Below are positions 8,894 to 46,091 of a stretch of DNA of 64,000 nucleotides, piece by piece. Numbering within the stretch: position 1 is the first letter of the stretch; every line of letters begins with the position of its first letter. The notes under the pieces were generated by a model. It had not been told where the DNA came from. It saw only the letters and a list, made by a program, of their open reading frames with translations, and ran no database searches. Position numbers and translations under genes: made by a program. Source of the DNA: an uncultured Planctomycetota bacterium (lineage in GTDB: Bacteria > Planctomycetota > Planctomycetia > Isosphaerales > Isosphaeraceae); assembly GCA_963737655.1 (NCBI GenBank), contig CAVTTN010000002.1, positions 4,064,001-4,128,000 of the forward strand, written 5' to 3'.

Positions 8894-9355
8894 TCATTCC
8901 TCCATCGCCCTCGGGCCATGCATCACGTCCACGGCGACCGATTGCGGTGCCAATCCCAGGTAGGCCAGCCATCGTTCGCCAAGTCCCGGCTCCGAGTCGA
9001 TCAACTGTTCGGCCCGCCGCCCCTCGACTCCATGCTCTTCCAGCCTCGTCAGGGCCACAAGTCGCAAGGCTCGATCCACTCGTCTGGCCCCACCCTCGGC
9101 ATCTCCCATTCGGGCGAGGAGGGACCGGACCACGACCCGGAAGGCCCGATTGACCATCCCGGCCTCCGATCCAGGCCCACCGGGATGGGCGTCGATGCCG
9201 ACGCTGAACTCCTCCCGCAACGCCTTGGCGATGGCGATGATCGTCCGGCCCTCGTCGGCTTCCTCGAACCTGCCTTCCACCGGCCAGTCTTCACCGCCTC
9301 CCTTGCCGTCCATATCGAGTCCTCCCGGATCACCCATCATGGGCGACCCGAGCAT
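8894..9355 (-). CDS. Hypothetical protein preceded by an ACACCGCCCA motif
   Basis: Open ORF; motif at 9392-9401 lies 36 nt upstream of ATG 9355; start uncertain. Confidence 0.45.
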   Translation of the reverse strand: MLGSPMMGDPGGLDMDGKGGGEDWPVEGRFEEADEGRTIIAIAKALREEFSVGIDAHPGGPGSEAGMVNRAFRVVVRSLLARMGDAEGGARRVDRALRLVALTRLEEHGVEGRRAEQLIDSEPGLGERWLAYLGLAPQSVAVDVMHGPRAMEE

Positions 9356-9458
9356 CCCGATCGAGGCCCGCTTCAGGTCGCTAGACGACCTTGGGCGGTG
9401 TTTCTGCGTTGAACGGTGAAGGGAAGCGGGGTCCGTCAGCGAGGACCACTCTCGGCCA

Positions 9459-9695: not shown

Positions 9696-9879
9696 CCGAG
9701 CGACGGTACGGACGTGAATCCGATAGATCGACCGACAATGACTAGACAGTCAATAACCAGCGTACGAGAATCCGCCGCCTTATGATCCGAGCCCGGGAAT
9801 TCCGCCAGGCGACGTGGCCGTGGCGGGGCCGATCGTCGTGAGCTTCCCGAACCCGCCGCCCCACCTCGGAGCCGAAGTC

Positions 9880-11076: not shown

Positions 11077-11284
11077 ACCGCCGAAGGCCGTTCGATCCGA
11101 CGAGGCTTGCGGTGATGACGATCAGTTTGGGTCCGAGCCGGAACTGGCCCTGTCGCTGAGCCGTAGGGGCAAGTAGAGGTCGCTCACCATCCCTTGTTAT
11201 TGAGGTGGCTGGACAGAATCGAGGACACCGCCCAGGTCGGTCATGTTGTTCCGACGGCGATGAAGACCCAGCGAGGAGAGACTC

Positions 11285-12145
11285 GTGGCACAAGAGTGGT
11301 TCTACGCACGAGAAGGCCAGAAGACCGGCCCCGTCTCAGCGAAGCTACTGCGGGAACTCGCAGTCTCGGCCGATCTCCGGCCCGACGATCTCGTGTGGTT
11401 GGAGGGCATGCCCGAGTGCAGGAAGGCGGGGACCCTCCAGGGGCTGTTCCCTGTGGCTAGCGCCGTCGAGCGACCGAAATCGCCTCCGCTCCCGACCTAC
11501 TCGCCATCGCTGCCGCAGGTCGCCACGTCGACCGTCGCCGGGTTGGACAGGTCCGAACCAGCCTCCAAGACGAGGGGGCGCTGGAACGGCGTCCTGGGAC
11601 TCGTGTCGATCCTGGTCGTGTGCGGCATGATCCAGCGAGGATACGTCTGGTTGTCTGGGCCGAAGGATAACTCCCAGGACGGGGCCGAGGAGAAGCTCGG
11701 CTCACCGGAGCGACAGGCAGGCCCGAATCTGAGCCAATCGTCCCAATCCGGCCCACCCACCGGCTCCAGCACGCCCCAGCAGGGCCAGTCGGGCAGCCTC
11801 GACACCGAAGCCGCACGAAACGCCCGGTTGTTCGTTACCCAACTCCCGTCGAGCGCAGCTAATTCACGTTTTGCGGGGACGGCGATGCAGGTCAGGGGCG
11901 AATGGGATGAAGCAGGAGGCACAGACCCATATTACGTTTACGTGAGACATCCATTGGAGCCAATAAGTAAAACTGTTATTTCCGTGGATCGAACATTTCC
12001 AAGCGATGAACAAGACGAGAGGTGGCGCAATCCTTACGGTGTCGGGGAAGTACAGAAGCTCCGAGAAGCTCCCACAAATCTGGATTGTTCAATTGGAAGA
12101 ATGCATGCTCGTCGATCTAAAAGGTTCAAAGATCTCGACTTCTAA
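11285..12145 (+). CDS. GYF_2 (DUF4339) domain membrane protein
   Basis: EWFYAREGQKTGPVS...LRPDDLVWLEGMPE; one TM; SD GAGGAG; motif copy at 11225-11234. Confidence 0.8.
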   Translation: MAQEWFYAREGQKTGPVSAKLLRELAVSADLRPDDLVWLEGMPECRKAGTLQGLFPVASAVERPKSPPLPTYSPSLPQVATSTVAGLDRSEPASKTRGRWNGVLGLVSILVVCGMIQRGYVWLSGPKDNSQDGAEEKLGSPERQAGPNLSQSSQSGPPTGSSTPQQGQSGSLDTEAARNARLFVTQLPSSAANSRFAGTAMQVRGEWDEAGGTDPYYVYVRHPLEPISKTVISVDRTFPSDEQDERWRNPYGVGEVQKLREAPTNLDCSIGRMHARRSKRFKDLDF

Positions 12146-12379: not shown

Positions 12380-13147
12380 CGCATCTTCATCGACGAGATC
12401 GACAAGATCGCACGCCGCCCGACGAATGGCAGGGACGTTGGCGGACAGGCGGTCCAGCAAGCCCTCTTCAAGATGATCGAGGGGCTCGATAGTGAATGTG
12501 CCGCCTCATGGGGGCAAGAAGCACGCCGAGCAGATCGGGATACCCGTAGACACAACCAACATCCTGTCCTTTTTCGGGGGTGCCTTTGTCGGATTGGATG
12601 ACATCGTCTCCCGTGGAAGGGGGAGTGGACGAGTCTCGTTCGGTTTTGGACAGTCACCGAGAGCGACAGAGGACGAAGGGGACGGGCTCCTGAAGCACAT
12701 CTTGCCTGGAGACCTGGAGGCGTTCGGGCTGATCCCGGAATTCGTCGGTCGCATCCCGGTCCTTGCCACGCTTGATCGCTCGACGAGGAGATGCTGGCCC
12801 GCATCTTGACCGAGCCGAGGGACGGGCTGATCAGGCGATTCAGGAAGTTGTTCCAGATGCTCGGCAGCGACATGGAGTTGATGACCACGGCAATCCGGGA
12901 GACGGCCAAGCTCGCCCTCCAACGGGGCACCGGGGCCAGGGGTTTGCGGGCCATAGTGGAGGAAATCCTGGAAGAGCCGCTCTTCGAGATTTCCGATGGG
13001 CAAACACGCAAAATATTCATCATCAGCCCCGCGAAGGTGCGAGGTGAGGAGACGGCGATCTCGATCGGCCTCCCGGCGATCGAATCCCGTAAGCCTGACC
13101 AGTCAACCGATTTGCAATCTCGGTCTCGGAGGTCGTTCCGTCGCTAG
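12380..13147 (+). pseudogene. clpX: ClpX-like ATPase, C-terminal remnant with frameshifts
   Basis: [67 protein letters not shown] spread over different frames. Confidence 0.85.
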
Positions 13148-16323: not shown

Positions 16324-16824
16324 TTACTTCCGTCGCCTGGACCGGGATCGTGGGGTGGCCGGGAAGGCGGGCGTCGCCGCCGGGCCCGGGCGGTGGGGCT
16401 CGTAGCGGCGAGGCCCGCTCCCCTCGCTGATCACGTCCAGGGCCACGAAGTCCTCGCCCCCGAGCCGCAGCACCTCGATCTGGCCCTGTGCCATCATGTC
16501 GAGGATCTGCTCCGGCCTCATGCGGAGGTAGCGGGCCGCCTCCGTGACCGAATTGTGCCTGATCGAGATGCCCATGATCGCCCTCCGGTGAAATTGTGGG
16601 AGGGTCATCGTAACACGAACCCGATCGCCCTTGCTCGGCTTCCCGTCGGCGCCCTCGATCGGTACGTATTGATTAACGAGCCAGGATTCGATCTGGGGCG
16701 TTTTCGGGCGATCCGGCCCTTGGAGGTCAACCGAGGGCCGTGGACCTCGTGGCGAGCCTTGCAGACGCCTTATTTCGATTCCTAAATGCTTGAGTCTCGC
16801 CTTCATGGAAATTCGGCCACTCAT
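16324..16824 (-). CDS. Hypothetical protein with C-terminal excisionase-like HTH
   Basis: SVTEAARYLRMRPEQILDMMAQGQI. Confidence 0.55.
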   Translation of the reverse strand: MSGRISMKARLKHLGIEIRRLQGSPRGPRPSVDLQGPDRPKTPQIESWLVNQYVPIEGADGKPSKGDRVRVTMTLPQFHRRAIMGISIRHNSVTEAARYLRMRPEQILDMMAQGQIEVLRLGGEDFVALDVISEGSGPRRYEPHRPGPAATPAFPATPRSRSRRRK

Positions 16825-17434
16825 TTGTCCCTGATCGTCGGGATGTGGCCCGTCTTGACGAACTCGGCCTCCATCACCGCCCTCGCATAGTCGGCCTGGT
16901 CCTTGGTGACCACGACGGCATCGTGGATGGTCCCGAGGAAGATCTGGGGCCGTTCGAGTGCGATGCGGCGACAGATCCGCTCGTAGGAAGTGGGACTCCA
17001 CCTTCTGCATCAACCGGGCCGCACGCTGGTACTGGCCGTGCTTGAGACCCAAGAGCATGTCGAAGACGGTCGGGAAGAGCCTCTCGAAGACCTTCCCCTC
17101 GGGGGAGTGCCTCTGGGCGGGGATCGTCCCGTAGAAGACGCTTTGGAAGAGGCGTTTCTTGAAAGCCTCTCGATCGACTGGTTGTCCGAGTTCTTCCATC
17201 TTGGTCTCGTAGAATTCCCCCGATTTCACAAGGGAGAGGTAGCTCTCCACGTCGCTATTGTCTCGTTCCTCTGGAGCCTCATCTCTTAATTGTTTCGTTT
17301 TATTGTCTATCTTATTAGCTTTTTGGAAGTTACGTTTATTCTCTCCTTGAAAGCGGGATCGTATTGGACCTGTCCCCGCCCCTCTCCCCCCCTCTTTCTT
17401 CAATTTTTGATTCTTCAATGGGAGAAAAGGGAAG
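16821..17434 (-). pseudogene. Family A DNA polymerase-like C-terminal fragment, frameshifted, cut by IS66
   Basis: REAFKKRLFQSVFYG...FERLFPTV...LMQKVESH, then after a frameshift near 16985 GTIHDAVVV (motif C-like). Confidence 0.6.
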
Positions 17435-20517: not shown

Positions 20518-21801
20518 GGGCCTGGGATGAAATAAGCTTTACAACCGACCGTGGCCCTCGATAATCGGGTCATGGACACCGATCAGGAATTGGAACGCAA
20601 GTTTGTCACACTCTTCCCCTGCCTCGACGAGAGGCAGCGTCGCCTCTTCGCTGCCGCAGAGGCCCGAGCCTTCGGCTACGGCGGGATCAGCCGCGTTAGC
20701 CGGGCCTGCGGCCTCTCTCGCGTCACGATCCAGGGGGCGTTGGAGGAACTGGATTGCCCGAGTCCGCACCCCGGCCGAGTTCGCCGTCCCGGTGGCGGCC
20801 GCAAGAAGCTCCGCGACTCCTCGCCACAACTGCTCAAGGCCTTGGAGGAGTTGATCGCCCCCGAGACCCGCGGCGATCCGATGTCCCCATTGCGATGGAC
20901 CTGCAAGAGCACCCGCCAGTTGTCCGAGGCCCTGCAGAAGCGGGGTCTGACCGCGAGCTATCACGTCGTCGGGCAGATGCTCCATCATTTGGGCTATCGC
21001 CTGCAAGCCCCCGCCAAGACTCTCGAAGGCAAGCGGCATCCCGACCGCGACGCCCAGTTCCGCGACATCAACGCGACCAGCGGAAGCTATATCGCCGCCG
21101 GGCAACCGGTCATCTCGGTGGATACGAAGAAGAAGGAGTTGGTCGGCCAGTACGCCAACGGGGGCCGAGGGTGGCAGCCGGCCGGCGAGCCGGAGCGGGT
21201 CCACGTCCACGACTTCCCGGACCCGGGCGTCGGCAAGGCCATCCCCTACGGCGTGTACGACGTGGGCTGGGATCTCGGCTGGGTCAATGTCGGATGCGAT
21301 CACGACACGGCGGCCTTCGCCGTCGAGAGCATCCGCCAGTGGTGGCGATCGATGGGCGAGCAGTCGTACCCGGAGGCCGGCCGCCTGCTGATCTGTGCCG
21401 ACGGCGGGGGGAGCAACGGCTATCGGCTGCGGTTGTGGAAGGTGGAACTCCAGCGTTGGGCCGATGAGACGGGCTTGGAGGTGACGGTCTGCCACCTGCC
21501 GCCGGGGACCAGCAAGTGGAACAAGATCGAGCACCGCCTCTTCTCGCATATCACGATGAACTGGCGTGGACGGCCGTTGGTAAGCCATCGAGTGGTCGTG
21601 GAACTGATCGCGGCGACCAAGACGGCGACCGGCTTGGAGGTCGAGGCTCGGCTCGATTCGGGGAGCTATCCGACCAAGGTGAAGGTCTCGAAGGAGCAGA
21701 TGGAGCAAGTCCGATTGAAGCCTCATGAGTTTCACGGCGAGTGGAACTACACCATCGAGCCGGGGGACTCTGAGTTGTAAACTTTATTTCGTCCCAGGCC
21801 C
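20518..21801 (+). mobile_element. ISAzo13-family insertion sequence
   Basis: 28-bp terminal IRs (25/28, GGGCCTGGGA..TTTACAAC) flanked by a TAA duplication at 20515-20517 and 21802-21804. Confidence 0.92.
20551..21780 (+). CDS. ISAzo13-family DDE transposase
   Basis: LDERQRRL, RGDPMSPLRWTCKS, ISVDTKKKELVG, ADGGGSNG, PPGTSKWNKIEHRLF. Confidence 0.95.
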   Translation: MALDNRVMDTDQELERKFVTLFPCLDERQRRLFAAAEARAFGYGGISRVSRACGLSRVTIQGALEELDCPSPHPGRVRRPGGGRKKLRDSSPQLLKALEELIAPETRGDPMSPLRWTCKSTRQLSEALQKRGLTASYHVVGQMLHHLGYRLQAPAKTLEGKRHPDRDAQFRDINATSGSYIAAGQPVISVDTKKKELVGQYANGGRGWQPAGEPERVHVHDFPDPGVGKAIPYGVYDVGWDLGWVNVGCDHDTAAFAVESIRQWWRSMGEQSYPEAGRLLICADGGGSNGYRLRLWKVELQRWADETGLEVTVCHLPPGTSKWNKIEHRLFSHITMNWRGRPLVSHRVVVELIAATKTATGLEVEARLDSGSYPTKVKVSKEQMEQVRLKPHEFHGEWNYTIEPGDSEL

Positions 21802-22088
21802 TAACAATAAGACAAACAGCGGAGTGATCCATCCGCCGGGGGCAGGGAACCAAGTCTTACACTTTTCGCCGGAAATACCTGGATTGATAGCTTTGAAACC
21901 GGCTCGTCCTCACAACCGCTTGGGCGGTGTCCGAGCAATCCAACACCGGAATCTCCGGTGTTGGCTTTCGATGAGAGCCGAGGATCGGGAGTGTCGTCGT
22001 TCGGGACGATGATCCGTGACAACTTTTGTAACCTCGGAGACGGTCCGGGTGGGCGTCCCTTCCCACCCGATCGGCCGTTGGTCTGGCC

Positions 22089-22336
22089 CTATTTGTGGGG
22101 CTGGAAGCCGTAGTAGATCCTCGGCGAGTGGGTGAAGCAGAGCGAGCCCTTCACCCGGTCGCTCTTCCTCACGGCGACGACGAGGGGCGCGGCGAACCCG
22201 ATCACCTCGAAGTCCTCCTGAAGCTCGTCCGTCGTCCAGACCTGGCCTGCTTCGCCTCCAGGTACTCACGGCTGCCGGGCTGGGCGTTGACCTCGACGAG
22301 CATCTGGCGACGGGCGTCCTCGGTTGCGTTGGGCAT
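22089..22336 (-). pseudogene. Small conserved hypothetical protein with a 1-nt frameshift
   Basis: MPNATEDARRQML...LEAK / GQVWTTDELQEDFEVIGFAAPLVV..RKSDRVKGSLCFTHSPRIYY; SD GGAGG. Confidence 0.7.
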
Positions 22337-22423
22337 GACGATCCTCCGTTGTTCTGGGGCTGTGATCTCAACGTCGAATTGGGCGGTGTCCCGTGATTGG
22401 CTCCACGGGACACCGGGAGGGGC

Positions 22424-22732
22424 TCAGTATTCAGCCGGGGTGAGGATGCAGGTCGAGGCCCGGCGACCGTCATCCCCCACGGCCTCGGTGATCACCCAGA
22501 GCTTGACGCCCCGAGTCGTCTTGTAGGCCGACAGGAGCCTGCTCCCGTCGATCAGGGCCTCGTCGTTGAGCGACTTGTCCTCGGAATCCAGGTCGCCCCA
22601 ATCCCCCTCCAGGTGGCGATCCAGGAAGTCGGAAGGCTGCTGACCGCTGGCCTCCATCGCCTCGATCGCTCCGGGTGTGGCCACGACCTGGCCGGGGAGG
22701 AACTTGGGGCGGGAAGTCTCGATCGCACTCAT
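22424..22732 (-). CDS. Plasmid/ICE-associated conserved small protein
   Basis: FLPGQVVATPGA...FLDRHLEGDWGDL..ED...N..AL..GSRLLSAY...LWVITEA...TCILTPAEY. Confidence 0.85.
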   Translation of the reverse strand: MSAIETSRPKFLPGQVVATPGAIEAMEASGQQPSDFLDRHLEGDWGDLDSEDKSLNDEALIDGSRLLSAYKTTRGVKLWVITEAVGDDGRRASTCILTPAEY

Positions 22733-22832
22733 CGATTCGCTCCGATACGGGACGAGGGTTTGGTCACAACCTGTTGGGCGGTGTTCTCCGAGCCGGTCGA
22801 TTGACCGGCTCGGACCCATGCCGTTGACGACC

Positions 22833-23267
22833 TCACCAGTCTTCCGGCTCGTCAGGCTCCGTCATGCCGTGCCAGGAATCGGCCTCGTCCTCGGCGTCGA
22901 TCTCCGACCAGTAGTCTGCCAGTTCGATGGCCTCGTTGCGGGCACGGGCGTCGTCGCATCCGATCAGCAACTCGCCCCGGAATAGCATGCCGTCGTCGCC
23001 CAGGGCGTAGCCGACGAGGAACCGGCCCCGAGGGAGCCGGATCATCAGGGCAACCGAGCCGTCGTGGTATCGCCGGACCACCTCCGACCGGCACAGGAGC
23101 TTGACCTTGCCGCCCCACGACAGCAGGGCCGTCCTGCCCTCGTGCCTGCCGGTGTAGGCCGTGATGTTATGCCCGTAGACCGATGCCCCGAAGGCGGTGA
23201 AGACCCGGCCCTGGTGGTCAATGACCCCGATCTCCCCCTGGCCCCGTCGCACACAAAAAGTCGTCAT
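22833..23267 (-). CDS. Hypothetical protein
   Basis: ORF with SD GGGAGG and upstream motif. Confidence 0.7.
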   Translation of the reverse strand: MTTFCVRRGQGEIGVIDHQGRVFTAFGASVYGHNITAYTGRHEGRTALLSWGGKVKLLCRSEVVRRYHDGSVALMIRLPRGRFLVGYALGDDGMLFRGELLIGCDDARARNEAIELADYWSEIDAEDEADSWHGMTEPDEPEDW

Positions 23268-23339
23268 CGCTTGCCTCCCGTCGAGTGAGTTTGGTCGTCT
23301 CAACGGGTTCTTGGGCGGTGTTCACGGACCGGGGTCCAT

Positions 23340-24295
23340 TCATTCGGCGGACTTATAACGAGCCAGGACACGGAAGAAGCTCGCCCGGCTCTTCTTCGTG
23401 AGCCTCCTCCAATAGTTCTGCTGATCACCCACCGAATCGGGATGGCGATCGAGGGCTTGCTGGAGGCAGCGGAGATCCTTGTCCCTGGAGTCGATCCGGC
23501 GGGACGTGTCCGGCTTCCTCCCGAGAGTTTGAAGTAGGCTCTGGACGAGCGGACGCCAGTCGAGGCCCTCGGATCGGGCATACTGGACCTTGCGAAATGA
23601 CGGCTCCAGCAGCCTCATCGAGATCAGGCGGTCGTCGCCGTTCACCTGGATGTAGTCCACGACCTCCAGGCAGTCGTCGGGGCTCAGGGAGTGATATCCG
23701 CCCCGTGCGATCGACCTCATGAGTGCGAGGACTTCCTCCTGGCTGGCGTCCAACTCGAAGATGTCGCATCGGCTCAACACGGCGTTGAAGGCCGCATTCT
23801 TGCGGGGATCACATTGGCGGCGAAGATGATCCGGCTCTCGAACACGAAGGATGGCGGGAGGTCATCCAACCGGCTCGAACCGTAGCAGACGACCCGAGGG
23901 TCGCCCCAGAGGGCCGAGCGCAGGAGGCCGACGTGGGCCATCGAGCCGAACATGGAATCCACATCATCGAAGAACACGACCTCTTCCCGGCGATGGCGAT
24001 ATAGTGCCGCATAGAGGGCGAGGGGCGTGACGTGGCTGTTCACGAGGATCGGCGAAATCTCCCCCTCGGCGAGCGTCTTGAGGATCGTCCTCGACTTGCC
24101 CAGCCCCCCCTGCGACCCGTAGCAGAAGACGGCCGTAATGAGCCCTCGGGCCACGAGCCGGACATGGTGGCCGAGGAGGGCCTGCCGCTCCTCCAGGGCC
24201 GTCCTGGGCGGCTCGTCCGCCATCCCCGGCAGGACCAGGGACAGGTCGCCGGTTCGACGCTCCAGGTTCTCGCCAGTCGTGTTCGCCGATCGCAT
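23340..24295 (-). pseudogene. P-loop ATPase (MGE-type), frameshift near 23803
   Basis: YGSQGGLGKS, FFDDVDS, IIFAAN, then AVLSRC in the shifted frame. Confidence 0.75.
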
Positions 24296-24397
24296 CTGCG
24301 ACCCCCGTTTACAAATATTGGAAATCCCCGAGCCCTTGGGCGGTGTTCCCTGGACGGCCCCGGAACCGATTCGATTTCGGGGCCGTCCCTCACTGGT

Positions 24398-24979
24398 TCA
24401 GGCGACCGATTGGATAGCCGCCGCCTCGCCGGTCCTGCGATCGATGAGGCAGCACGACTCGCCAGGTTCGCTATCGAGGAACGCCCTGGCCTGGTCGAGA
24501 TGCGTGAACCCTCGGTAAAGGCGGCGAGTGGCCGTCTGGCCGTCGATCGTGGCCTCGCCCTTCCAGGAGACCTGATAGCAGGGGATACGAGCCTCGACCT
24601 TCCGCACCCACTCCCGGCAATCCCGCTCGAAGTCGCGGTCGTCCTCACGACCGGCCCCGTAAACGATATCGAGCCGGACCCGGCCGAGGACGTTGTAGGA
24701 CTCGGCAGCGACCTCCAGGGCGTAATCGGCGTGGTAGACGTAGAGGCTGGGGGCGCACTTGAGCCTGCGGCTGCGGAGGTACTGGCTCTGCTCGGTGCCG
24801 AACATGTGCCCGTCCCGCCACATCCTCTTCTTGAGCAGGTCGAAGCCCCGCCCGTTGAGGATCTCCCAGACGTTGTAGAGCAGGCGGGACTCGGCCCCGT
24901 ACCAGCCCGGAGCCGACCACGACTTCCTGCTCCGGTTGGGCCGGAACCTGGGGTCGCCCGGCTCCCGATAGACGATCAT
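24398..24979 (-). CDS. Hypothetical protein
   Basis: ORF with SD GGGAGG and upstream motif. Confidence 0.7.
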   Translation of the reverse strand: MIVYREPGDPRFRPNRSRKSWSAPGWYGAESRLLYNVWEILNGRGFDLLKKRMWRDGHMFGTEQSQYLRSRRLKCAPSLYVYHADYALEVAAESYNVLGRVRLDIVYGAGREDDRDFERDCREWVRKVEARIPCYQVSWKGEATIDGQTATRRLYRGFTHLDQARAFLDSEPGESCCLIDRRTGEAAAIQSVA

Positions 24980-25105
24980 GACTTCCTCCCGAGGGGTGTT
25001 TCTCACATCCCCATGGGCGGTGTTTTCGAGATGCGGCCTATCGAGGGAGCAGGGCTGACCTGAAGGGAGAGGATGGAGCGGCGGACATGCCGCCCCATCC
25101 TCGTC

Positions 25106-25516
25106 TCACTCGTCTTCCGACTCCGTGAACTTCCGAGGATCGACCCCCTCGTCGGGAAGGCCGTCGCCGTGATATGTCATAGGGAACGGCAGGTCGGTCC
25201 GCTCCTGGCCGTGGATCATGAGGTGATCGAGGTCGATGACCCTTCCCGACCCGTCGTGGTGGCGATCGTCCTCGGGATAATCGCCGAGGTCGGAGTCGGG
25301 GACGTGGATCCGATGGCCGTAGGTCTTGTCGTCGCTGAGTTCGTCGATGGCGTCCGAAACCGTGCCGGCCTCGACGACCAGGAAGATCGGGGAATAGCTC
25401 CCGCCGAGTTCGATCAGCCACGCCTTGCCGAACCACCCACCGGGATACAACACGGGGATGTCGGTCAGGTCATGATCGTGCATGCGGAACCGGGCTGTGA
25501 TTGTCTTCTCGCTCAT
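25106..25516 (-). CDS. Hypothetical protein
   Basis: MSEKTITARF...VVEAGTVSDAIDELSD; SD GGAG; upstream motif. Confidence 0.75.
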   Translation of the reverse strand: MSEKTITARFRMHDHDLTDIPVLYPGGWFGKAWLIELGGSYSPIFLVVEAGTVSDAIDELSDDKTYGHRIHVPDSDLGDYPEDDRHHDGSGRVIDLDHLMIHGQERTDLPFPMTYHGDGLPDEGVDPRKFTESEDE

Positions 25517-25710
25517 GACATCGCTCCCTGGGGTGTCTCGATCACCCCCCCCTGGGCGGTGTCCGGCGAAATCGGGGACTTGCACCGGGCGAAGTAGGTT
25601 CCCATGCCGGGGACGAGGCAAACGTCGTGGTCCTCGGCATCGCCGCCGCACTCGGAGCAGGTCTCGAACTCGAACAGGTTTTCCAGCCACTCCTCGGGCG
25701 TCTCGCTCAT
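25513..25710 (-). CDS. Small Zn-finger-like protein
   Basis: CSECGGDAEDHDVC...FARC; its 3' end reads through the next motif copy (DTAQGG). Confidence 0.7.
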   Translation of the reverse strand: MSETPEEWLENLFEFETCSECGGDAEDHDVCLVPGMGTYFARCKSPISPDTAQGGVIETPQGAMS

Positions 25711-25764
25711 TTTCGCCACTCCGAAGGGGGTGTTGTTCACACCCCCTTGGGCGGTGTGCGGCCC

Positions 25765-26487
25765 TCATCCGGCGATGGGCAGGAGTTGCTGGATCGAGTC
25801 GTAGCGAGGGATATCGGAGCAGGCGTTCTCGACGAACTGGAAGGCCGCATGATTCTCGACCTCGGAGGACGCCTGCTCCGGCGTCCAGTCGTGGCCCAGC
25901 ATCACGACGAGGGCGTACAGCTTGCGGAGGGTCGGATAGCCCATCGTGGGGTAGGTCCGATCCCAATCGAGCCAGGCATCCGTGCCGTCCCTGTAGGGAT
26001 TGCCCCGGAAGACCTCATGCCAGTAGTCCCGCCTCTCGTCCTTCGAGAAGTCGAACCCCTCGAACTTGAGGATGCCGAGGTAGCCGCCCTAGCGGCCCAT
26101 CCAGGTGTATGCGACCTCCACCTTGGTGCCGTCATACAGGTGGTCGTAGCAGTCCGAATCGGTGACGAGGTGGCAGGCGTCCTCCACACCCCACTCGAAC
26201 AGCTTGTCCCGGACCGCTTCGTACTTGGCCTCGTCCTTCCCCAGCCACTCGGGGTTGTCGAGCCAGGTCTCGCCGTCGCCGTAATAGCCGCCGCTGCGGT
26301 ACACCTCGACGAGATGCTCGAAGTCCAGATCGACGCCGTAGCACTTGACGTTGAAGGCGAAGTAGCTCCGGCCGTTGTGCCCGTAGGCCGAGTCATACCC
26401 GCCGACCGAGGCGAGGTAGGCGGCGATGTCGTTTCGTGACCGGAGCGGCGTCCGGTAGTGGGCGGGTTTCTTCGGTCGGTGATGCAT
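25765..26487 (-). pseudogene. Hypothetical protein with an in-frame TAG at 26089-26091
   Basis: ...YTWMGR*GGYLGIL... stays in frame to TGA at 25765. Confidence 0.7.
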
Positions 26488-26554
26488 GCTGGGGCTCCGA
26501 AGGGGGTGTTCTTCGCACCCCCTTGGGCGGTGTCCGGCCCTCGGCCCTGCGGGG

Positions 26555-27463
26555 TCAGCCCGTCAACCGCTGCTCGGCGGGCTCGGCGAAGGCCCGGTCC
26601 CAATACCTGTCCAGGTTCTCATCCGACCTCTTGCCCGCCAGGTAGTCGAGCAGGTAGGAGGCGAGCTTGTGGCCGGGGTCGGCGGGTCCGGGCTTGCCCT
26701 CCAGGAAGGCCCTCAGTTGCTTGAGGTTGCGGGGGACAGGCCCTCCCGTCCCCGTCGCCTCGTGGACCTCCTGACGCTTCTCCTTGACCTTGGCGGCGGT
26801 GATCTTGCCGCCCCCCTCGGCGACGGAATTGAACACGCCGATCCGCTTCTCAGGCGGGAGCTTGACCAGTTCCAGGGCGGCGGCGACCGGCGTCTTCCCG
26901 TGGGCCACGCTCTCCTGGATCACGGCGGGGAGCATCACGAGGTTGAGCAGATTGGCGATCCACGCCTCCGACCGTCTGAGGCGTCCCGCCACCTGCTTCA
27001 GCGTCAGGCCGTAGTCTTCGGTCAGCGAGCGGACGGCGTGGGCCAACTGGATCGGCCTGGGATCTTCCCGCTGGATGTTCTCGCTGAGATTGACGAGTGC
27101 CGCCTCGGCGTCACTGAGGCGGCTGACGACATATTTGACCTTGAAATCGGGGCACGTCCCCGACTCGATCAGCCAGAGTGCGGCCCGCATGCGGCGGAAA
27201 CCACCCACAACTTCCAGGCGGCGGTCGGGCATGGGTCGGGTGAGGATCGGGTTCAACTGCCCCGAAGTGCCCTCCTCGGCGTCCCCCTGGCCCTTCTTGG
27301 GCATCATGTCCCTGGCGAGTTCCATCAGGGCCTCATCGACGGGCGGTTCTTCACCGTTGCGGGAGAGGTTCTTGCGCCAGTCCACGATCAGGGCGGTCGG
27401 ATCGACCATGAAAACGTCGCTGCGGCTGACCTTGTGGTCGCCCGTCTCTGCGGTGAAGGCCAT
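26555..27463 (-). CDS. ParB/RepB/Spo0J-family protein
   Basis: GQLNPIL...VVGGFRRMRAA, NLSENIQREDP, HTH LTLKQVAGRLRRSEAWIANLL. Confidence 0.88.
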   Translation of the reverse strand: MAFTAETGDHKVSRSDVFMVDPTALIVDWRKNLSRNGEEPPVDEALMELARDMMPKKGQGDAEEGTSGQLNPILTRPMPDRRLEVVGGFRRMRAALWLIESGTCPDFKVKYVVSRLSDAEAALVNLSENIQREDPRPIQLAHAVRSLTEDYGLTLKQVAGRLRRSEAWIANLLNLVMLPAVIQESVAHGKTPVAAALELVKLPPEKRIGVFNSVAEGGGKITAAKVKEKRQEVHEATGTGGPVPRNLKQLRAFLEGKPGPADPGHKLASYLLDYLAGKRSDENLDRYWDRAFAEPAEQRLTG

Positions 27464-27526
27464 CGTCGTCTCCTCTGAGTAAAGTTGTCGGGGGTGTTGT
27501 TCACACCCCCTTGGGCGGTGTCTCGC

Positions 27527-28222
27527 TCAATCCAGCGGTTCGCATTCGTCGGCATCGACGAGGACGGCCCGACCCGAGTAGGACCACGGACCGATCGCCT
27601 CCGACTCGTCGATGGCGACGATGACGGCCTCCTCGGCGTTGCTTTCCTCTCCGGACGGGCAGCACCGGATGACCTTGCCGGTGCCCTTGAGCCGGTCACC
27701 GCTCGGCATCCTCGCCTCGACTCGCACGGGGCCGCCGGGCCGGAAGGCGTCATCGTCGTCGGGATCGTCGTCCGGTTTGCGGGCCTCGGACTCGACCACC
27801 TCGTAAGCCAGTTGGGCGAACTCGGTGAATTCGGAATGGAAGGGCGAAGATTCGATGTCGATACCGAGCTTGGCCTCGGCGATCTCAATGTTCTCGTCGT
27901 AGTCGTCGGCGAGTCCGACCCCGTGGCCCCGGCATCCCATCAGGATGGAGTAGAGGGCGTCGGCCCACTCGTCCTCATCGATCTCCATCAGGGTGAACAT
28001 CTCGCCGACGCTTCGGCCCCAGGCTCGGGCCAGGTCGGCGACGTAGGGCCGGATCAATTCGAGGAGCTTGTCCGAATCCTGGTCCGGGCACACATCCGTG
28101 ATTTCGGTCCCGGCTGCGAAGGAGAAGCCCGCCTCCTCCCGTGCCGACGCCCACTCGGAAGCAAAGAAGCTCTGTGCGGCCTCGGCCAGCACGTCGTCGG
28201 ACAGTTCGATCGTCTCGCTCAT
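27527..28222 (-). CDS. Acidic hypothetical protein
   Basis: ORF with SD GGAGGT and upstream motif; D/E-rich. Confidence 0.7.
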   Translation of the reverse strand: MSETIELSDDVLAEAAQSFFASEWASAREEAGFSFAAGTEITDVCPDQDSDKLLELIRPYVADLARAWGRSVGEMFTLMEIDEDEWADALYSILMGCRGHGVGLADDYDENIEIAEAKLGIDIESSPFHSEFTEFAQLAYEVVESEARKPDDDPDDDDAFRPGGPVRVEARMPSGDRLKGTGKVIRCCPSGEESNAEEAVIVAIDESEAIGPWSYSGRAVLVDADECEPLD

Positions 28223-28273
28223 GGTCACCTCCAGGGGGATGTTGTTCGCATCCCCCTGGGCGGTGTCCCCGGA

Positions 28274-28879
28274 TCACTCCTCGATCGGCGTGAATCCGAG
28301 ACCGACGAAGGCGTCCCGCATGTCGCTTTCTTCCGGGTATCCTTCCCGATCGTCCCGGTTCTCGACGGCCCGCTGGTTGTGTTCCCAGAACCACGAGAAG
28401 ACGGCGGATTCCCAGCCTTCGGGAAGTTCGTACTCTCGCTTCAATCGCCATGCAGCCTCGCCAATGTTCTCGATCGTGGCGTCATGCTCCTTCCGGGAAG
28501 ACGCCTCTTCGTCGAGGATCGGGTCGTCGGCCATTCGTTCGGCGAGTCCGTGGTAGGTCTTGAACGCTTCGGTGATCTCGCCGTCCCTGAAGACCCGGAT
28601 TGGGACGCCATCGACATGGCCGACCGCCCAATGCCCGTGACTCTCGAAAACCACGTCGGGGTCGTCGTCCTCGCTGAAGGAACTCATAACTCCGGCGATG
28701 GTCTCGGCGTTGCTCGTGTCGAGGAGGTCGCTGTCCCGGTAATGCGTGTAGAGGACGGCCCACGAGTCGGGGTCGTCGATATCTCTGGCTCGTTCCCAAT
28801 AGAAGCAATCGAACCCCCGCCAGTTCCCCGCCGCTCCCTTTGCGGCGTCCTCGACCGTCATCTCGCCAACCATGTACAT
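28274..28879 (-). CDS. Acidic hypothetical protein
   Basis: RDSDLLDTSN...GHWAVGHVD...DDPILDEE; SD GAGGT; upstream motif. Confidence 0.75.
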   Translation of the reverse strand: MYMVGEMTVEDAAKGAAGNWRGFDCFYWERARDIDDPDSWAVLYTHYRDSDLLDTSNAETIAGVMSSFSEDDDPDVVFESHGHWAVGHVDGVPIRVFRDGEITEAFKTYHGLAERMADDPILDEEASSRKEHDATIENIGEAAWRLKREYELPEGWESAVFSWFWEHNQRAVENRDDREGYPEESDMRDAFVGLGFTPIEE

Positions 28880-29008
28880 GGTCACCTCGCGTTGGGTCGT
28901 GTTTTCACATCCCCTTGGGCGGTGTCCGTTGGTCGGACGGTGGACGCCGGTTGAATTGCCTGCTATGGTCGCCGCTTCGCCACTCCCCGCCCCCTGCGGA
29001 GCCCGACG

Positions 29009-29662
29009 ATGGAGATGATGGCCGAGCGGCTCGACCGCCTCGAACGAAGCTGCCGCCGCTGGAGGTGGGCGGGGATTGTCTTCGCCCTCCTGGTCGGCAC
29101 CCCGATCGCACTACTCTTCGTCGCCTTGCTGATGAGCGACGGGATCAACGAGACGAAGGGCCTCATCGTCCGGGACAAGGACGGGATGGCTCGCATCGAT
29201 TTCGGGACGTATCCGAGCGGCTCGCCCAGGATGGGACTCCGGGGCCGGGACGGGAAAGTCCGTCTTGAGTTGAGCCTGAACGATGCGGATTCCCCGACGA
29301 TCAGGCTCAACGACAAGGACGGGAAGGGTCGCCTCTCGATGAACATCGATGATGACGGGCCGACCGTGAGGTTGAACGACAAGGCCGAGGTTTCCCGGCT
29401 ATTGCTGTCCGTCGCCGAGGACGACTCGCCCGTCATCGGCCTGAAGGGCGGGAACGGAGACTTCCATCTCTGGATGCGTGCCGACCCCGATGGCACGTCG
29501 AGGATCGATATCCTGGACAAGAACGGGAAGCATCGCCTGGCGATCGCACAAGGCAAGGACGGCGAACCGGCGATCGGGCTGATGGACATGGACGAGAAGC
29601 TCCGGTTCGGGATCAGTCTCGACAAGGACGGCAAGCCGGTAATCACACCGTCACGGCCCTGA
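29009..29662 (+). CDS. Membrane-anchored protein with ~22-aa beta-type repeats
   Basis: ERLDRLERS..RWR + TM, then repeats of the type P.I.L.DKDGK.RL. Confidence 0.75.
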   Translation: MEMMAERLDRLERSCRRWRWAGIVFALLVGTPIALLFVALLMSDGINETKGLIVRDKDGMARIDFGTYPSGSPRMGLRGRDGKVRLELSLNDADSPTIRLNDKDGKGRLSMNIDDDGPTVRLNDKAEVSRLLLSVAEDDSPVIGLKGGNGDFHLWMRADPDGTSRIDILDKNGKHRLAIAQGKDGEPAIGLMDMDEKLRFGISLDKDGKPVITPSRP

Positions 29663-29753
29663 GATCCATGTCCTCGATAACCTGGGCGGTGTCCGTTGGT
29701 CATCTCGACGGAAGGCCGGGGCGGCATCGATGCCGCCCCGGCCTCGCTATCGA

Positions 29754-30699
29754 TCATCGGGCCAGTGCGGGCTCCGCCCCCTCCTCCGCTTCGGTCACTG
29801 CGGTTCGGCTGAAGGACAGGAGGTAGTCGGCAGCCTTCGACGCTTGCGACGAGGCGGTGAAGATGAATCTCGGGTCGTCCTTCAACGCCCGGAGCCAATT
29901 TGCCAAGTAAGAAACGTGGTTGCCCAAATTCTCCGAGGCCGGGACGCCCAAATCTCGCCAGGTAGCAGGCCCCGACTTCGGCGACGAGTTCCCCCATCGC
30001 ATACGTGTGGCCCGCTTCCTTGCGGGACCAGTTCAACCGAGCGGGATGCTCCGTGGCGTGGATCAACTCGTGGAAGATCGTCTCGCAATACTCGTCGGCT
30101 TCGGTGAACGTGGCCTTCGGGGGAACCTGGATGTGGTCGTGGAGCGGGCTGTAGTATGCCCGACCACCTCCATACCGGATGCTGATCCCCGTGGCGGCGA
30201 TGGCCTCCTCGGCGGGTTCGTAGTCGATGACGGGAGGGTCGTTGACCGCCCCGCACCGACCGGCCCGGAGGTGATCGAGGTGACTTCCCTCGACCTGATC
30301 GACGTTGAACACGGTATACGCCTTCATGACGAAGAACCGATCCGCCTTATCCTCGCCGGTGTCGCTCTTGGTCACCTTCGTGATCGGGCTCCAGAAGACG
30401 ACCTGGCAGCCCCACTGGCCCTCGGGCACACCCTCGGGCCGTCGCATGACCTTGCCTCCGAGGCCCTTCCACTGATTGAACGTGGCCCACCACCTCGACG
30501 AGAGGTTATGTCGTGCCGACGACATCTCCAACAGGATCGGATTGATGCCCCTGTAGGGCTTCCTGGAGACGATGTTGGCGGGGAACCCGGCGTCCTTGTC
30601 GGCCCGCCACGGGCGTCTCCAGGGCGGGATGTTGCCGGATTCCAGGGCGACGACGATCTGGTTGGTGATCGACTGTCGAAGTTGCTGCTGGCTTGCCAT
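29754..30699 (-). pseudogene. ardC: ArdC-family antirestriction protein (ssDNA-binding + zincin-like domain), frameshift near 29955
   Basis: ITNQIVVALESG..PWRRPW...PYRGIN...WATFNQW...YTVFNVDQ...FHELIHAT...YAMGELVAE / HVSYLANWLRALKDD...ASKAADYL. Confidence 0.92.
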
Positions 30700-31095
30700 G
30701 TCCGCTCTCCGCTCGGGCCGTGGTTGGTTAACCTGACGACCCGTTGGGCGGTGTTCATGGCTGCGGTAGCGGCGACACGGCGATATCGCACGAGAGTTGA
30801 GACGAGGAGCGATCGTCCCGTACGATCGGCAGGTTCTCCGTCGTCTCAACGGCGGCTTGAGACCGGCAAGCTGAGCCCAGGATCGGATGGAAATTATTGA
30901 CCGAAATGACTTAGGGGCGGGCCGTTTCGAGGGATCGGCGTCGGCAAAGTCTCAGTCTCAGATGAGACCGGGACCGGGCCGAGGATTTGCAATTTTTGTA
31001 AACGGCCCGATGTCCCAGGATCGAGCCCCGGACACCGCCCAAAGGATCGAAGCGGGAGGTCGATCGTCGGGAAGAGAGACCGCAGGAGGATTCGA

Positions 31096-35383: not shown

Positions 35384-36529
35384 CTCGACGGAAGGTCGGC
35401 ATCTGGGTCTGGCTGCCCATCGCTCGTCTCCGGTCGTCGGGGTGGTCATCACGACGACCGGAGGGATGGTGTCAGGGCAACGGGGATGCTCCGGCGAACA
35501 AGATCGGGACGTTACGTAATTTCTGAATCAGGAGGACAACGGGTTGAACGGGGTAGAGTTCAGGGGCTTGATCGCCGTCTGACACCGTGTTTCTGTGAGG
35601 GCAACGAGCCGGGTCCGTTCCCCACTTGCCGCATCCGATTGAGGCAAGCGGTCAGATGGCCACGTCAACCGAGGAATGACCCATGCGGAGCGAAGTCCGG
35701 TTCGTGATGCTGCCCGAGGTCGAAGCGGTCCTCTTCCGTCTCATCACGTCCGACGCTGGGACGGTCCTCGTCAACGGGCCGAGATGGGGCACCCCCGAGC
35801 CGCCGATCGTCGCACGGTTGGAGGACGCCGGGCCGCATCTGCTGATCTGGAGCCCGTCCGATCACGCTTCGTTGGCGGCGAATCGACACGAGAAGGATGG
35901 GAGGGTTTGGTGGTATTGCCGGGACGAGGGAGCGACGATCCAGTTTCTCCGTAGCCGACACCGACCCGGCGAGTCGTTCATCTACGAGGGGAGGCTGGCC
36001 GTGGCCACGACGCAGCGGGGCGAGCCGCCCGGCTCCGGAGTCACGGCCTCAGTCGTCCAAAGCCGCTACCTCTCCCTCAAGCGGCAGATTCAGAAGTCGT
36101 GTAGGAACAAGGTGGTCATCTGGCAGAACCGCTCGCTGCCCCGGTCGAGGACGAATCCGCTCATGCCCGATGCCGGCCTCTGGGCCGGCCCCGAGCGCTT
36201 CGCTGGCTGGAGGAGGACTCGGCGAACCGCTGGGTCCAGGTGGTGCCCGATGCCCACGCCAGGGGCTACCTGCTCGACATGGTGCCCTGACAGACGACTG
36301 GACCCTTCCCTGGACGGCTCGAACTCGGCTATGGATTCCGCTTGCCTTCGATCGGATCGCCTGTACACTGGCTCGGTTGGGCCTAATTCGGGGGCATCGC
36401 ATGCCGCTCCGGCGAGTGCCGTGCGACCTGTTCTATGCCCGCCACGGGCAAGTTACTTGGTTCAACCGCCTGCCGGCCAGGCATCCAGATGGACAAGGGC
36501 ATTTCTGCCCGGTGGTTGGAAGCAGAACG

Positions 36530-43935: not shown

Positions 43936-44673
43936 GTGGTGAACGATTCGAGCCCAACAGTTACGGCATCAGCCAGGAGGCCCAAGCGAGTCCCGCCCCG
44001 GACCGACCTGGATCATTTCGCCGAATTCGTCGATCGGGCCGGTGGCAGCTCCGGTGCCGATGCATTCTCGGTTTTTGCCTTCGACGGCGAGGAAGAGCGG
44101 CATTACAGGCCGCACGAGGGGATCACGGAGGAAGTGTTCGAGAGGCTGGGCCGGGAAGAGTGGGAGAGGGAGGAGTTGGCTCGGGCCGTCGTCGAGAACT
44201 TGCTGTGTCAACGCAGCCACAAGGTCCGGGTGGTCCGATCCGTGCTGGAGGACCACCCGAAGGCAAGCCTGCCGGAGATGGTCGAGGAGCGGGGGTTCGC
44301 CGCAGTGGGCGACGAGATGGAGCGGGCCATGCGAGCAGCCCGAGTGTCGGCGAGGGAACCCGAGAGGGGTCCGACACCACCTTCCCCATCGGCCCTCACG
44401 ATGCTGTTCGATCGGATGACCGCCCTCGAAGCCAAGGTGGCCACGACGGCAACGTCCCTTCATTCGACATCCAGACCCGAGAACACCGCCCAGTACGCAT
44501 CGCCCTACCTCGACACCCGGAAGGCTGCTGCCTACCTGGGAGTTAGCCTGGGCAGCCTCTACGGGATCGTGGAGCGGGGGCAGATTCGCCCCCTCCGTGG
44601 CCCCCGGAGGAGATACCGCTTCACGGCGGCGATGCTGGACGAATACCTGGGTCGGAAGGGGGGCGGACGTTGA
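43936..44673 (+). CDS. Excisionase-like protein (C-terminal HTH_17)
   Basis: PYLDTRKAAAYLGVSLGSLYGIVERGQI...RYRFTAAMLDEYL; overlaps the integrase start. Confidence 0.8.
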   Translation: MVNDSSPTVTASARRPKRVPPRTDLDHFAEFVDRAGGSSGADAFSVFAFDGEEERHYRPHEGITEEVFERLGREEWEREELARAVVENLLCQRSHKVRVVRSVLEDHPKASLPEMVEERGFAAVGDEMERAMRAARVSAREPERGPTPPSPSALTMLFDRMTALEAKVATTATSLHSTSRPENTAQYASPYLDTRKAAAYLGVSLGSLYGIVERGQIRPLRGPRRRYRFTAAMLDEYLGRKGGGR

Positions 44674-45881
44674 ACGGCGAGGTCTTCGTGCTGGACGACG
44701 GTCGGAGGGTGCGATTCTCGCTCAAAAAGCGGGACCGTGACCCCTGCTACCTCGTGAGTTTCAAGGGGCCTGATGGCGGGCGGAAGGAGCTTTCCACCAA
44801 GGAGGCCAACAACCGTCGGGCGGTGGATGCCTCGGTCCTGCTGATCAGGACGGCGTTCATGCCGAAGGGCGACCCCCCGAAGAACCCGTCCTGGGACGAG
44901 GCCATCGGGGTGATGATCCCCCAGATGAAGTCCGATGGGCTTCGCCCCACCACCATCGACCAGTATCTCCTCGTGATCAAGTCGTTGCGACGGACCTTCC
45001 CGGATGCCCACGGCCCGGCTGGGATCACCCCGAGCATGGCGAGTCGCTACAAGGCCCTGCGGCGTGAGAAGGGGATGCGAGACCGTCCCTTCACCGTCCG
45101 AACCGTCCAGGGGAATCTCGACAACTTGAATATCATCTACAACAAGTGGTGGATCGGCGAGTGCAAGATCTTGACCGACAATCCCTTCGCCGACGTGTCG
45201 CAGATGAAGGCCGACAGGCAGAGCCCACGGGTGCTGCTCCCCCAGGAAGTGAACAGCTTCCTCGACTGGTTGTCGAAGCGGTGGGGCGGCTGGCGGCTAC
45301 CGATTCTGTTCCTCGAAACCAAGGGACTGGTCGGATGCCGGATCATGGAGCTTGCGTCGGCGTCGAGGAACGACCTGCGGGATGGGAGGCTCTATTTTGC
45401 CGCCGAGACGACCAAGGGTCGCAAGGAGCGGGGGGTCAAGCTGCCCGCTGCGATCTACGCCGAGCTTCAATCGCTGGCCGGGCCGATGTTCGTATGGGAG
45501 GCGTTCCCTGCGCAGCTACGGAGAGCATTCCAGGAGCGGGGATGGCTGCGGGCGGAACTAATCGAACCCGACTTCAGGCCGAACCGGCTGAAGAAGTGGA
45601 TGCAGCGGGAGAAGCGGACGTATCTGAAGCTCAACCCCTCGGCCAAGAAGTTCAAGCTGCACAACCTCCGTGGCACGGCCATGACGAAGGCGAAGGTGGT
45701 GGGGATTAGCTACGAGGACGCCGCAGTCGCCTTCGGCTGCAACCCCGAGACGATGCGGAAGCATTACGTCGCCTTGGACGAGACTGCGGTGTCCGATCGG
45801 GTGATGGACGCCATCCAGGGAGCAGGTCCGCCGATCGGGGATCGTGAATCCGAGGGGGCGTCGGGATTGCCCGACCCATGA
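44670..45881 (+). CDS. Tyrosine recombinase/integrase
   Basis: GCRIMEL, TKGRKER, KLHNLRGT, TMRKHY; adjacent to the tRNA-Gln 3' end. Confidence 0.9.
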   Translation: MNGEVFVLDDGRRVRFSLKKRDRDPCYLVSFKGPDGGRKELSTKEANNRRAVDASVLLIRTAFMPKGDPPKNPSWDEAIGVMIPQMKSDGLRPTTIDQYLLVIKSLRRTFPDAHGPAGITPSMASRYKALRREKGMRDRPFTVRTVQGNLDNLNIIYNKWWIGECKILTDNPFADVSQMKADRQSPRVLLPQEVNSFLDWLSKRWGGWRLPILFLETKGLVGCRIMELASASRNDLRDGRLYFAAETTKGRKERGVKLPAAIYAELQSLAGPMFVWEAFPAQLRRAFQERGWLRAELIEPDFRPNRLKKWMQREKRTYLKLNPSAKKFKLHNLRGTAMTKAKVVGISYEDAAVAFGCNPETMRKHYVALDETAVSDRVMDAIQGAGPPIGDRESEGASGLPDP

Positions 45882-46014: not shown

Positions 46015-46020
46015 GCGTAG

Positions 46021-46091
46021 CTGGGGATCTAGGATTCGAACCTAGACTAAGTGATCCAGAGTCACTCGTGCTACCGTTACACCAATCCCCA
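46021..46091 (-). tRNA. tRNA-Gln (CTG)
   Basis: TGGGGAT/ATCCCCA acceptor stem, AGTGA-CTCTGGA-TCACT anticodon arm, GGTTCGAATCC; CCA not encoded. Confidence 0.96.

Follow-up and report, generated by a model that had tools for sequence, protein, structure and literature searches.

The 64,000-nucleotide stretch analyzed here (the window; positions 4,064,001 to 4,128,000 of contig CAVTTN010000002.1, assembly GCA_963737655.1) belongs to an uncultured planctomycete of the family Isosphaeraceae, whose genome (G000; 7.63 Mb, 87.7% complete) carries a chromosomal island of ~48.2 kb, bounded by a 23-bp repeat of the end of tRNA-Gln(CTG); next to the tRNA it encodes an integrase and an HTH_17 protein. 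In this island small genes form a mostly co-oriented array, and nearly every one of them is preceded by a copy of the same oriented 10-mer, ACACCGCCCA, referred to below as the box. We describe the box as part of a family of cis-elements on planctomycete islands that is real and apparently undescribed; the short signal before almost every small gene is probably a private promoter, i.e., one that the routine transcription apparatus of the host does not recognize.

The window holds 18 exact copies of ACACCGCCCA, all within the island, while shuffled sequences contain 0.13 on average (largest count 2; 0 of 100 shuffles reach 18), in line with the initial annotation of this DNA, where fewer than one chance copy per window had been predicted. 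The 15 positions given there were all correct (14 on the minus strand and that at 31032 on the plus strand), as were the 12 gene starts, each an ATG found 34−48 nt after the box, but three further copies had been overlooked, at 9392 (−), 11225 (+) and 44483 (+). The whole genome contains 34 copies, and the 16 outside the window compare with ~15 expected there at the shuffle rate; none of these 16 is followed by the second element described below or by a Shine-Dalgarno (SD) sequence and a start codon. The nine sites in the genome that match ACACCGCCCA-N6-YGT are all found in the island, and among 10-kb bins of the genome scored for an oriented 9-mer before SD and ATG, the array ranks first (10 vs 7 in the next bin). 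The proposed restriction of the motif to the island, its orientation and its fixed spacing were borne out, and core-genome copies appear only at chance level. The features of the island, read from its tRNA end, are as follows:

46019..46041, plus strand: attachment repeat in tRNA-Gln(CTG); its partner (G000:C2:4061831-4061853; 22/23 identical) lies 2.2 kb left of the window
44670..45881, plus strand: tyrosine integrase (phrog_1 match)
44483..44492, plus strand: exact 10-mer inside an HTH_17 (xis-like) open reading frame (ORF), without the second element and possibly due to chance
35463..35474, minus strand: family-type site in the island cargo, with TGACACC and a different tail, hairpin, SD and ATG
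31032..31041, plus strand: box facing outward from the array; related islands likewise have a box of divergent orientation ahead of ardC
30745..30754, minus strand: box before ardC
29754..30699, minus strand: ardC (ArdcN + MPTase-PolyVal), with a frameshift near 29950
29683..29692, minus strand: box that, with the 28916 copy, forms a 19-bp direct repeat around an antisense gene
29009..29662, plus strand: the antisense gene of 217 amino acids (aa) between the duplicated boxes, without a Pfam match
28274..28925, minus strand: box (28916-28925), hairpin and acidic 201-aa gene (family c4; 1141 homologues)
27527..28266, minus strand: box (28257-28266), hairpin and acidic 231-aa gene (c48)
26555..27521, minus strand: box (27512-27521), hairpin and ParB-like gene (ParB_N + HTH_ParB)
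25765..26533, minus strand: box (26524-26533) and gene with an internal stop at ~26090; a single ~250-aa gene in loci L069 and L070
25513..25757, minus strand: box (25748-25757) and 65-aa Cys/His-rich acidic gene (c2a)
25106..25562, minus strand: box (25553-25562) and acidic 136-aa gene (c2b)
24398..25023, minus strand: box (25014-25023) and 193-aa gene (c24)
23340..24346, minus strand: box (24337-24346) and P-loop ATPase-like gene (phrog_1250), split by a frameshift
22833..23321, minus strand: box (23312-23321) and 144-aa gene (c10), with the SD covered by the hairpin
22424..22784, minus strand: box (22775-22784) and 102-aa gene (c1) that has homologues in 166 plasmid records
22092..22389, minus strand: box (22380-22389) and frameshifted c5 gene (83 aa in relatives)
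21802..21930, minus strand: terminal box (21921-21930) and the initial half of a ~280-bp stretch, non-coding and conserved, with which related arrays also end
20518..21801, plus strand: ISAZo13-family insertion sequence (IS) that interrupts the terminal region; TTA is duplicated and nothing is deleted
16327..17418, minus strand: fragment of a PolA-like gene (motifs by eye), cut by IS66 and homologous to a 468-aa protein of genome G094
11225..12145, plus strand: remote box (11225-11234) and GYF_2 gene, upstream of ClpX-like remnants (12492-13147)
8894..9401, minus strand: remote box (9392-9401) and c39 gene, directly after an XRE gene (~9462-9749)

The gene content described initially, i.e., ardC, a ParB-like gene and an ATPase, is present, but ardC, the ATPase gene and the genes starting at 26487 and 22336 are broken by frameshifts or a stop. 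Because 6 of 37 host-like genes are frameshifted as well, in either genome compared, both decay and sequencing or assembly error are possible, and the breaks may in part be sequencing errors. A paralogue of the 28222 gene is found outside the island (G000:C2:572690-573370; 58% identical), in a region that showed no site of the box type.

The motif is longer than the 10 nt initially assigned to it. From 15 arrays, 165 sites with an SD and an ORF downstream were collected, of which 135 were kept, i.e., 124 with YG and a spacing of 33−52 nt together with 11 window sites. Their consensus, YGACACC-nnCGR followed by 6 nt, YGT and an A-rich stretch, is bipartite, with the leading Y of the box optional. 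The full order is box, 6-nt spacer, YGT at the top of a variable hairpin, SD and ATG, with a length of ~35 bp and stems of 8−10 bp that differ between copies, and the YGT begins at motif position 17 in 92 of the 135 sites. The hairpin starts right after the box (positions 11−13 in 60 of 66 strong hairpins; loop ~20−25), the folding z-score is below −2 in 41% of the sites compared to 7% of coding controls, and some stems extend over the SD. These properties would suit an element acting at the RNA level, where box and hairpin form a leader, a processing site or a protein-binding site (boxA/boxB-like) that cuts or tunes a long array transcript. A clear stem is, however, present in only 80 of the 135 sites while the spacing of the box is rigid. 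Mismatches in the stems display no strand bias (G-T vs A-C, 41 vs 35), and under RNA parameters the template strand folds as well as the coding strand. Features of intrinsic terminators are absent (0 of 80 stems with five or more T), and with no U-tract this role was ruled out; divergent and remote single sites would, in addition, need transcription starts of their own. We therefore regard an RNA-level role as improbable.

Close orthologues of the ParB-like gene (66−85%) are found at 17 loci in 15 of 120 genomes of the family, and these Isosphaeraceae loci share the array with varying order and content; the taxonomic labels of such loci are Isosphaeraceae, Planctomycetaceae or Planctomycetota. 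One contig labeled alphaproteobacterial carries a standard array with boxes (L126:7534-11500), which may reflect mis-binning or cross-phylum transfer. Of 18 islands, 16 carry ardC. In 14 of the related arrays (124 kb, with ranges chosen by hand) YGACACC occurs 222 times in the forward and three times in the reverse orientation, compared to 0.15 per kb per strand outside. Orthologous genes in the homologous arrays are also led by boxes, but with other tail letters: each locus has its own dominant tail after (Y)GACACC, i.e., GCCGA, GCCGG/GGCGG, GGCCA, GACGA or ACCGG, and the tails in G080, which is of the same genus as the window, are not GCCCA. A second class of box, CRCCCTG, stands before the same downstream element at three loci (one each in G094, G052 and G118). 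The exact 10-mer on which the initial annotation was based is thus one variant among several; as a conserved unit it was rejected, with two copies within 300 nt in only 5 of the 120 family genomes and none at a ParB locus, and arrays with a CCA tail were seen only in G000 and on C134 of G094.

The tails change in concert at the level of the island. Comparing positions 6−10 between different genes of one island gives a likeness of 0.70, while shuffling of the island labels within gene families gives a mean of 0.58 (maximum 0.61 of 1000), with the window sites, which had been selected on the 10-mer, excluded; when G094 C134 is left out as well, the values are 0.70 and 0.59. This signal is driven by positions 6 and 10, whereas positions 11−35 of the hairpin follow the gene rather than the island (0.51 vs 0.39). 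At remote sites, an intact ACACC box precedes c39 at 4 of 6 loci, window counted, and a box is found at 4 of 7 sites of the ClpX-like gene, where those of G093, G092 and G004 carry ATCGG; several remote sites have the tail that dominates in their own island. The ClpX-like ATPase gene itself (window 12492-13147; L050:10232-11383) recurs in 13 of 37 loci and is led by a box in several. G094 harbors three islands with three box variants. The likeness of tails across the genes of an island, the remote sites and the variants of G094 point to an element-specific factor that reads the box, although island and host are mostly confounded.

Promoters of the host are canonical, with TAnnnT at a spacer of 16−18 behind 66 of 480 TTGACA sequences. 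At the 135 island sites a −10 element of this type (TAnnnT, spacer 16−18) is found in none and TTGACA itself in three, and the array contains one sigmaA promoter-like site with 1.1 expected. A host regulon was considered and rejected: with a matrix trained without the window, 8 of 39 matches above 16 bits fell at island sites (0.25 expected), and the outside matches were, by eye, mostly in coding sequence.

Island-specific drift is typical of repressor-operator pairs, and this property counts in favor of a model where the boxes are oriented repressor operators (as in CUP/ArdK, Reg576 or stoperator-like systems) that keep the genes silent until a repressor-free cell is reached. XRE, RHH and ParB genes do occur on the islands, and ArdC regulons of p576 are under repressor control (PMC8708921). 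There is, however, no sigmaA promoter to repress, no repressor gene is universal, and the helix-turn-helix (HTH) of ParB is nearly identical across both box classes, which makes operators of this kind a poor candidate. The initial comparison with the conserved upstream (CUP) repeats holds insofar as repeated sequences precede establishment genes that include ard, but a model of repressed sigma70 promoters fails because the −10 element is missing in 135 of 135 sites.

Between homologous arrays, genes are gained, lost and reordered in box-led modules. At module changes 203 of 764 alignment restarts lie within 5 nt of a box, compared to 1.6% at random, a count that is inflated, as alignments are prolonged by a conserved box and the pairs depend on one another; several indels between close pairs end away from boxes. 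In the best reading the units, as promoters of single genes, also mark module boundaries. Gene order and content that vary so widely, together with the restarts at boxes, the duplication of 19 bp with its box around the antisense insert in the window and the small tyrosine or serine recombinase encoded in some arrays, could also be accounted for by recombination sites of an integron-like cassette system, expressed from one upstream promoter. The inflated breakpoint count and the indels ending off boxes speak against such a system, as does the fact that the recombinases are not universal, and the fixed distance to the ATG and the isolated remote and divergent sites better suit promoters. Integron attC sites are ~57−141 bp long with R''/R' cores, in contrast to the short box and 8−10-bp stem of the island unit, and the tyrosine integrase of the island is 14 kb from the array. 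Recombination sites as the primary function of the units seem, in our view, unlikely to be the explanation.

Twelve related islands and numerous metagenome loci have a conserved counterpart of the ~280-bp non-coding region that follows the last box (21921). The region contains AATTCCAGG, GGTGGA and a T-rich tract (window 21802-21930 and left of 20518; L022:11184-11519) and ends arrays whichever putative replication gene comes next (primase-like or PolA-like, by eye); we consider it a candidate origin of transfer or replication. In Rfam only tRNAs were matched at the gathering score, the terminal region giving chance-level matches only. The small PolA/T7-RNAP-like protein encoded beyond it (window 16327-17418; L017:12355-13758) has motifs resembling, by eye, GRxxS, RxxxKxxxxxxxYG and HDS/HDA, without sequence matches in Pfam or PDB, and its gene alternates between islands with an unrelated ~550-aa primase-like gene and a small RHH-like gene. 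As a private RNA polymerase it was rejected, being found at only 4 of 37 loci (E<1e-7), without a PDB sequence match and not universal.

A terminal origin would be central to a model where the array enters the cell single-stranded from this region and template-strand hairpins are used as leading-region promoters by the host RNA polymerase, with no island factor involved. The array is transcribed toward the non-coding region, which is common to islands that differ in their replication genes, none of the island genes is universal, the islands include ArdC and genes of plasmid type, and a rod-like 165-nt cassette in eight genomes could be a single-strand origin. The Frpo promoters that would serve as precedent show sigma70 −35 and −10 elements in long stems (PMC11541004), while the stems here are 8−10 bp long and lack TAnnnT. 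Their mismatches are not biased toward one strand, no relaxase, type IV secretion system (T4SS) or capsid families were found among the 201 proteins scanned with Pfam (47, 94 and 60), no TrwC was found in G000, and the island-specific tails are left unexplained. On balance single-stranded promoters appear unlikely, if slightly less so than the operator, RNA-level and recombination models.

Other identities of the island were considered and rejected. A helper in G000 itself was discounted, with no TrwC and with a VirD4-like gene at 1.57 Mb that has no exact box nearby (an isolated coupling protein gene, G000:C2:1571543-1573114, away from the island). For a prophage origin, IMG/VR gave no relatives with ParB-like or sigma-like queries, and 76 viral loci that matched the motif carried neither an array nor an array protein. 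For a plasmid, PLSDB had no match to the ParB-like protein (1e-20) or the terminal region.

We favor, with a probability of about 0.55, the interpretation that each unit is a promoter for one gene, of a non-housekeeping type and dependent on a trans-acting activator. The unit would then be a compact promoter cassette within an early or establishment array of an integrative element. The primary sigma factor of the host would not read it; instead, a trans-acting factor of the element family would recognize the upstream box with an element-specific preference. From the geometry, the YGT would lie near −13 to −11, with transcription starting near motif position 30 and a leader of ~14−28 nt. With a promoter on every gene, box-led modules would be free to be gained, lost or reordered. 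The best candidates for the reader would be degenerate sigma-like cassettes related to the extracytoplasmic function (ECF) family, either complete with sigma2 and sigma4 or with sigma2 only and needing a partner; the window island, which has no such cassette, would either be silent or rely on a co-resident or helper element. A more elaborate version, which we consider tentative and clearly less probable, is a private transcription programme of a widespread element family, in which element-borne degenerate sigma factors, including a sigma2-only subunit with a separate box-reading partner, direct the host RNA polymerase to the per-gene promoters; tails would diverge between co-resident elements like immunity groups, islands without a reader would rely on the other islands, and the cassettes would also be the units of shuffling.

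Sigma-like cassettes led by boxes are found in 8 of 18 islands selected by ParB, mostly near the end of the array, and a box is upstream of 38 of 45 sigma-like genes, as it is of all array genes. One of the proteins, P0002, matches Sigma70_r4_2 (E 5.5e-4) and TIGR02937 (E 3.3e-5), both under the cut-off. In P0001 the N-terminal domain is sigma2-like: its best seven structural matches are ECF sigma factors (best SigR, Z 8.5, root-mean-square deviation 2.9, 76 aligned), with no match to sigma4 and two short helices at the C-terminal end. In a predicted complex, P0001 docks on the beta' clamp helices of the G000 RpoC with a score of 0.84 (best control 0.00); 116 of 157 pairs with solved structures and 2 of 215 mismatched ones attain the mark for such complexes. 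The predicted contacts are D42, A45, E46, A49 and W52 (agreement at least 87%, confidence score (pLDDT) of the partner at least 85). This model suggests that the sigma2 domain may bind the clamp helices. Of the proteins that had been named initially as possible binders, ParB was rejected as the reader: its HTH is nearly the same across both box classes, and the complete arrays L101 and L069 keep the box without ParB. Only 6 of 18 islands have an XRE gene.

Several observations weigh against a promoter read by an element-borne factor. None of 35 gene families scored in 37 loci is universal and no sigma-like member was found in G000 (87.7% complete), although its box is the most uniform. The sigma-like genes are limited to those 8 of 18 islands, and tail uniformity is not clearly different between islands with and without them. 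The clades of P0001 do not track the box class, and a gene of the alternative class sits among standard ones. Foldseek gave P0001 no match at E<=0.001, the Z-score is in a range that is ambiguous for helical bundles, and the docking, for which the two chains were taken from different genomes, may owe its score to resemblance to known structures of sigma with RNA polymerase; a protein with sigma2 alone could equally serve as a decoy and block the sigma factors of the host. Box and YGT lie ~4 nt closer together than the corresponding elements of ECF promoters. G094 is the one case in which island and host genome are not confounded, and related islands are not independent. Loss of sigma genes through an IS was rejected, as the ISAZo13 insertion (20518-21801) is clean and nothing was deleted.

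By analogy, the unit works like the PeSL, CUP or AcaCD systems, yet it matches none of them and each fails a defining feature. The closest in architecture are the PeSL of T4-like phages (PMC2839356, PMC4122927), cassettes before each small unknown gene, where a polyG/polyC stem-loop over the −10 region is followed by SD and ATG. In these lytic phages they are promoters of sigma70 consensus with an AT-rich tract upstream, and modules are exchanged, with mini-circles, at the cassettes. Shared with these are the per-gene cassette and the stem-loop followed by SD and start codon, and shuffling at cassettes may be a further common trait, whereas the island units lack TAnnnT, reside on a tRNA-integrated chromosomal island and have a box that varies between elements. 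The closest gene context is that of CUP (IncN; PMC5371602) and EGeRS (pLS20/p576; PMC8708921), where 4−5 repeats precede operons of conjugative plasmids, CUP and EGeRS2 combine sigma70/sigmaA promoters with repressor sites, and EGeRS1 are repeats of 420−750 bp that are 62−95% identical. They resemble the arrays in having upstream repeats before establishment genes that include ard, with rearrangement between the repeats; they differ in that the ~35-bp island unit precedes nearly every gene and that no housekeeping promoter is found in it. No counterpart of a CUP or EGeRS2 repressor emerged as a universal gene among the 35 families scored, where ArdK and Reg were not used as queries.

The AcaCD core is a 13-bp inverted repeat, GCCCTAAAAGGGC (GCCC-N5-GGGC; PMC4605294). 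As in the AcaCD/SetCD system of SGI1-type helper-dependent islands, the boxes are oriented, the island may lack its own activator and the regulon includes remote sites; in contrast, GCCCTAAAAGGGC differs from the consensus YGACACCnnCGR-N6-YGT, and no helper was found. Frpo/ssi sequences, whose long stems imitate TTGACA/TATAAT beside a known origin of transfer (oriT; PMC11541004), similarly place structure-forming sequences before co-oriented anti-defence genes, but −35/−10 elements in a long stem were not found in the island arrays. No known oriT was found next to the arrays, which end in the conserved terminal region, a candidate origin with no plasmid match; G000 showed no TrwC. For the reader, the likeness is to phage-encoded sigma factors and to SigO-RsoA, a two-part sigma factor: an element-borne sigma-like or sigma2-only protein could redirect the host RNA polymerase. 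P0001 and P0002 differ from these by falling below curated sigma cut-offs, being patchy among islands and having no sigma4 partner found. Among the top-ranked results of a literature search no description of the element was found, and published ECF promoter motifs could hold a match.

Mobile elements of Planctomycetota have barely been studied, and here an island family is defined by its cis-element. It offers a test system with dozens of natural box variants and candidate sigma-like readers, and ~30 box-led gene families, mostly of unknown function, reside beside ardC. If the promoter interpretation is correct, these islands would carry a promoter code that is orthogonal by nature and diversifies, in elements other than phages, and the box-led genes would narrow the search for proteins of host takeover or anti-defence to a few candidates.

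A number of further observations were made in the islands. Distant relatives with sigma2 and sigma4 (L115:10303-10950, L114 and L116) stand behind a different motif, CTCTCATTC, and a hairpin, which suggests a third class of the same design. The rod-like cassette (L012:7345-7515, plus strand; orthologues in eight genomes, absent from G000) is box-led and without an ORF, and forms a ~165-nt rod with internal bubbles and two-sided changes in 7 of 65 pairs (5 sequences); it has no Rfam match, and candidate roles are those of a 6S-like RNA and of a single-strand origin. In L022, L021 and L026, near tRNA-Gln(CTG), a recurrent gene is accompanied by tRNA-Gln/Gly/Met genes; these islands may consist of elements in tandem. 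The c4 protein has one match to an uncharacterised phage protein (E 2.7e-5); its predicted fold is of low confidence (pLDDT 62), with a best PDB Z of 5.2 and no usable Atlas match. Among the array genes, for which PADLOC gave no match, ArdC is the only identified anti-defence product. In the cargo at 36530-38668 a HATPase_c_3 protein has a weak PADLOC match to type II restriction, and related islands also carry BREX, type I methyltransferase and TIR/CHAT genes.

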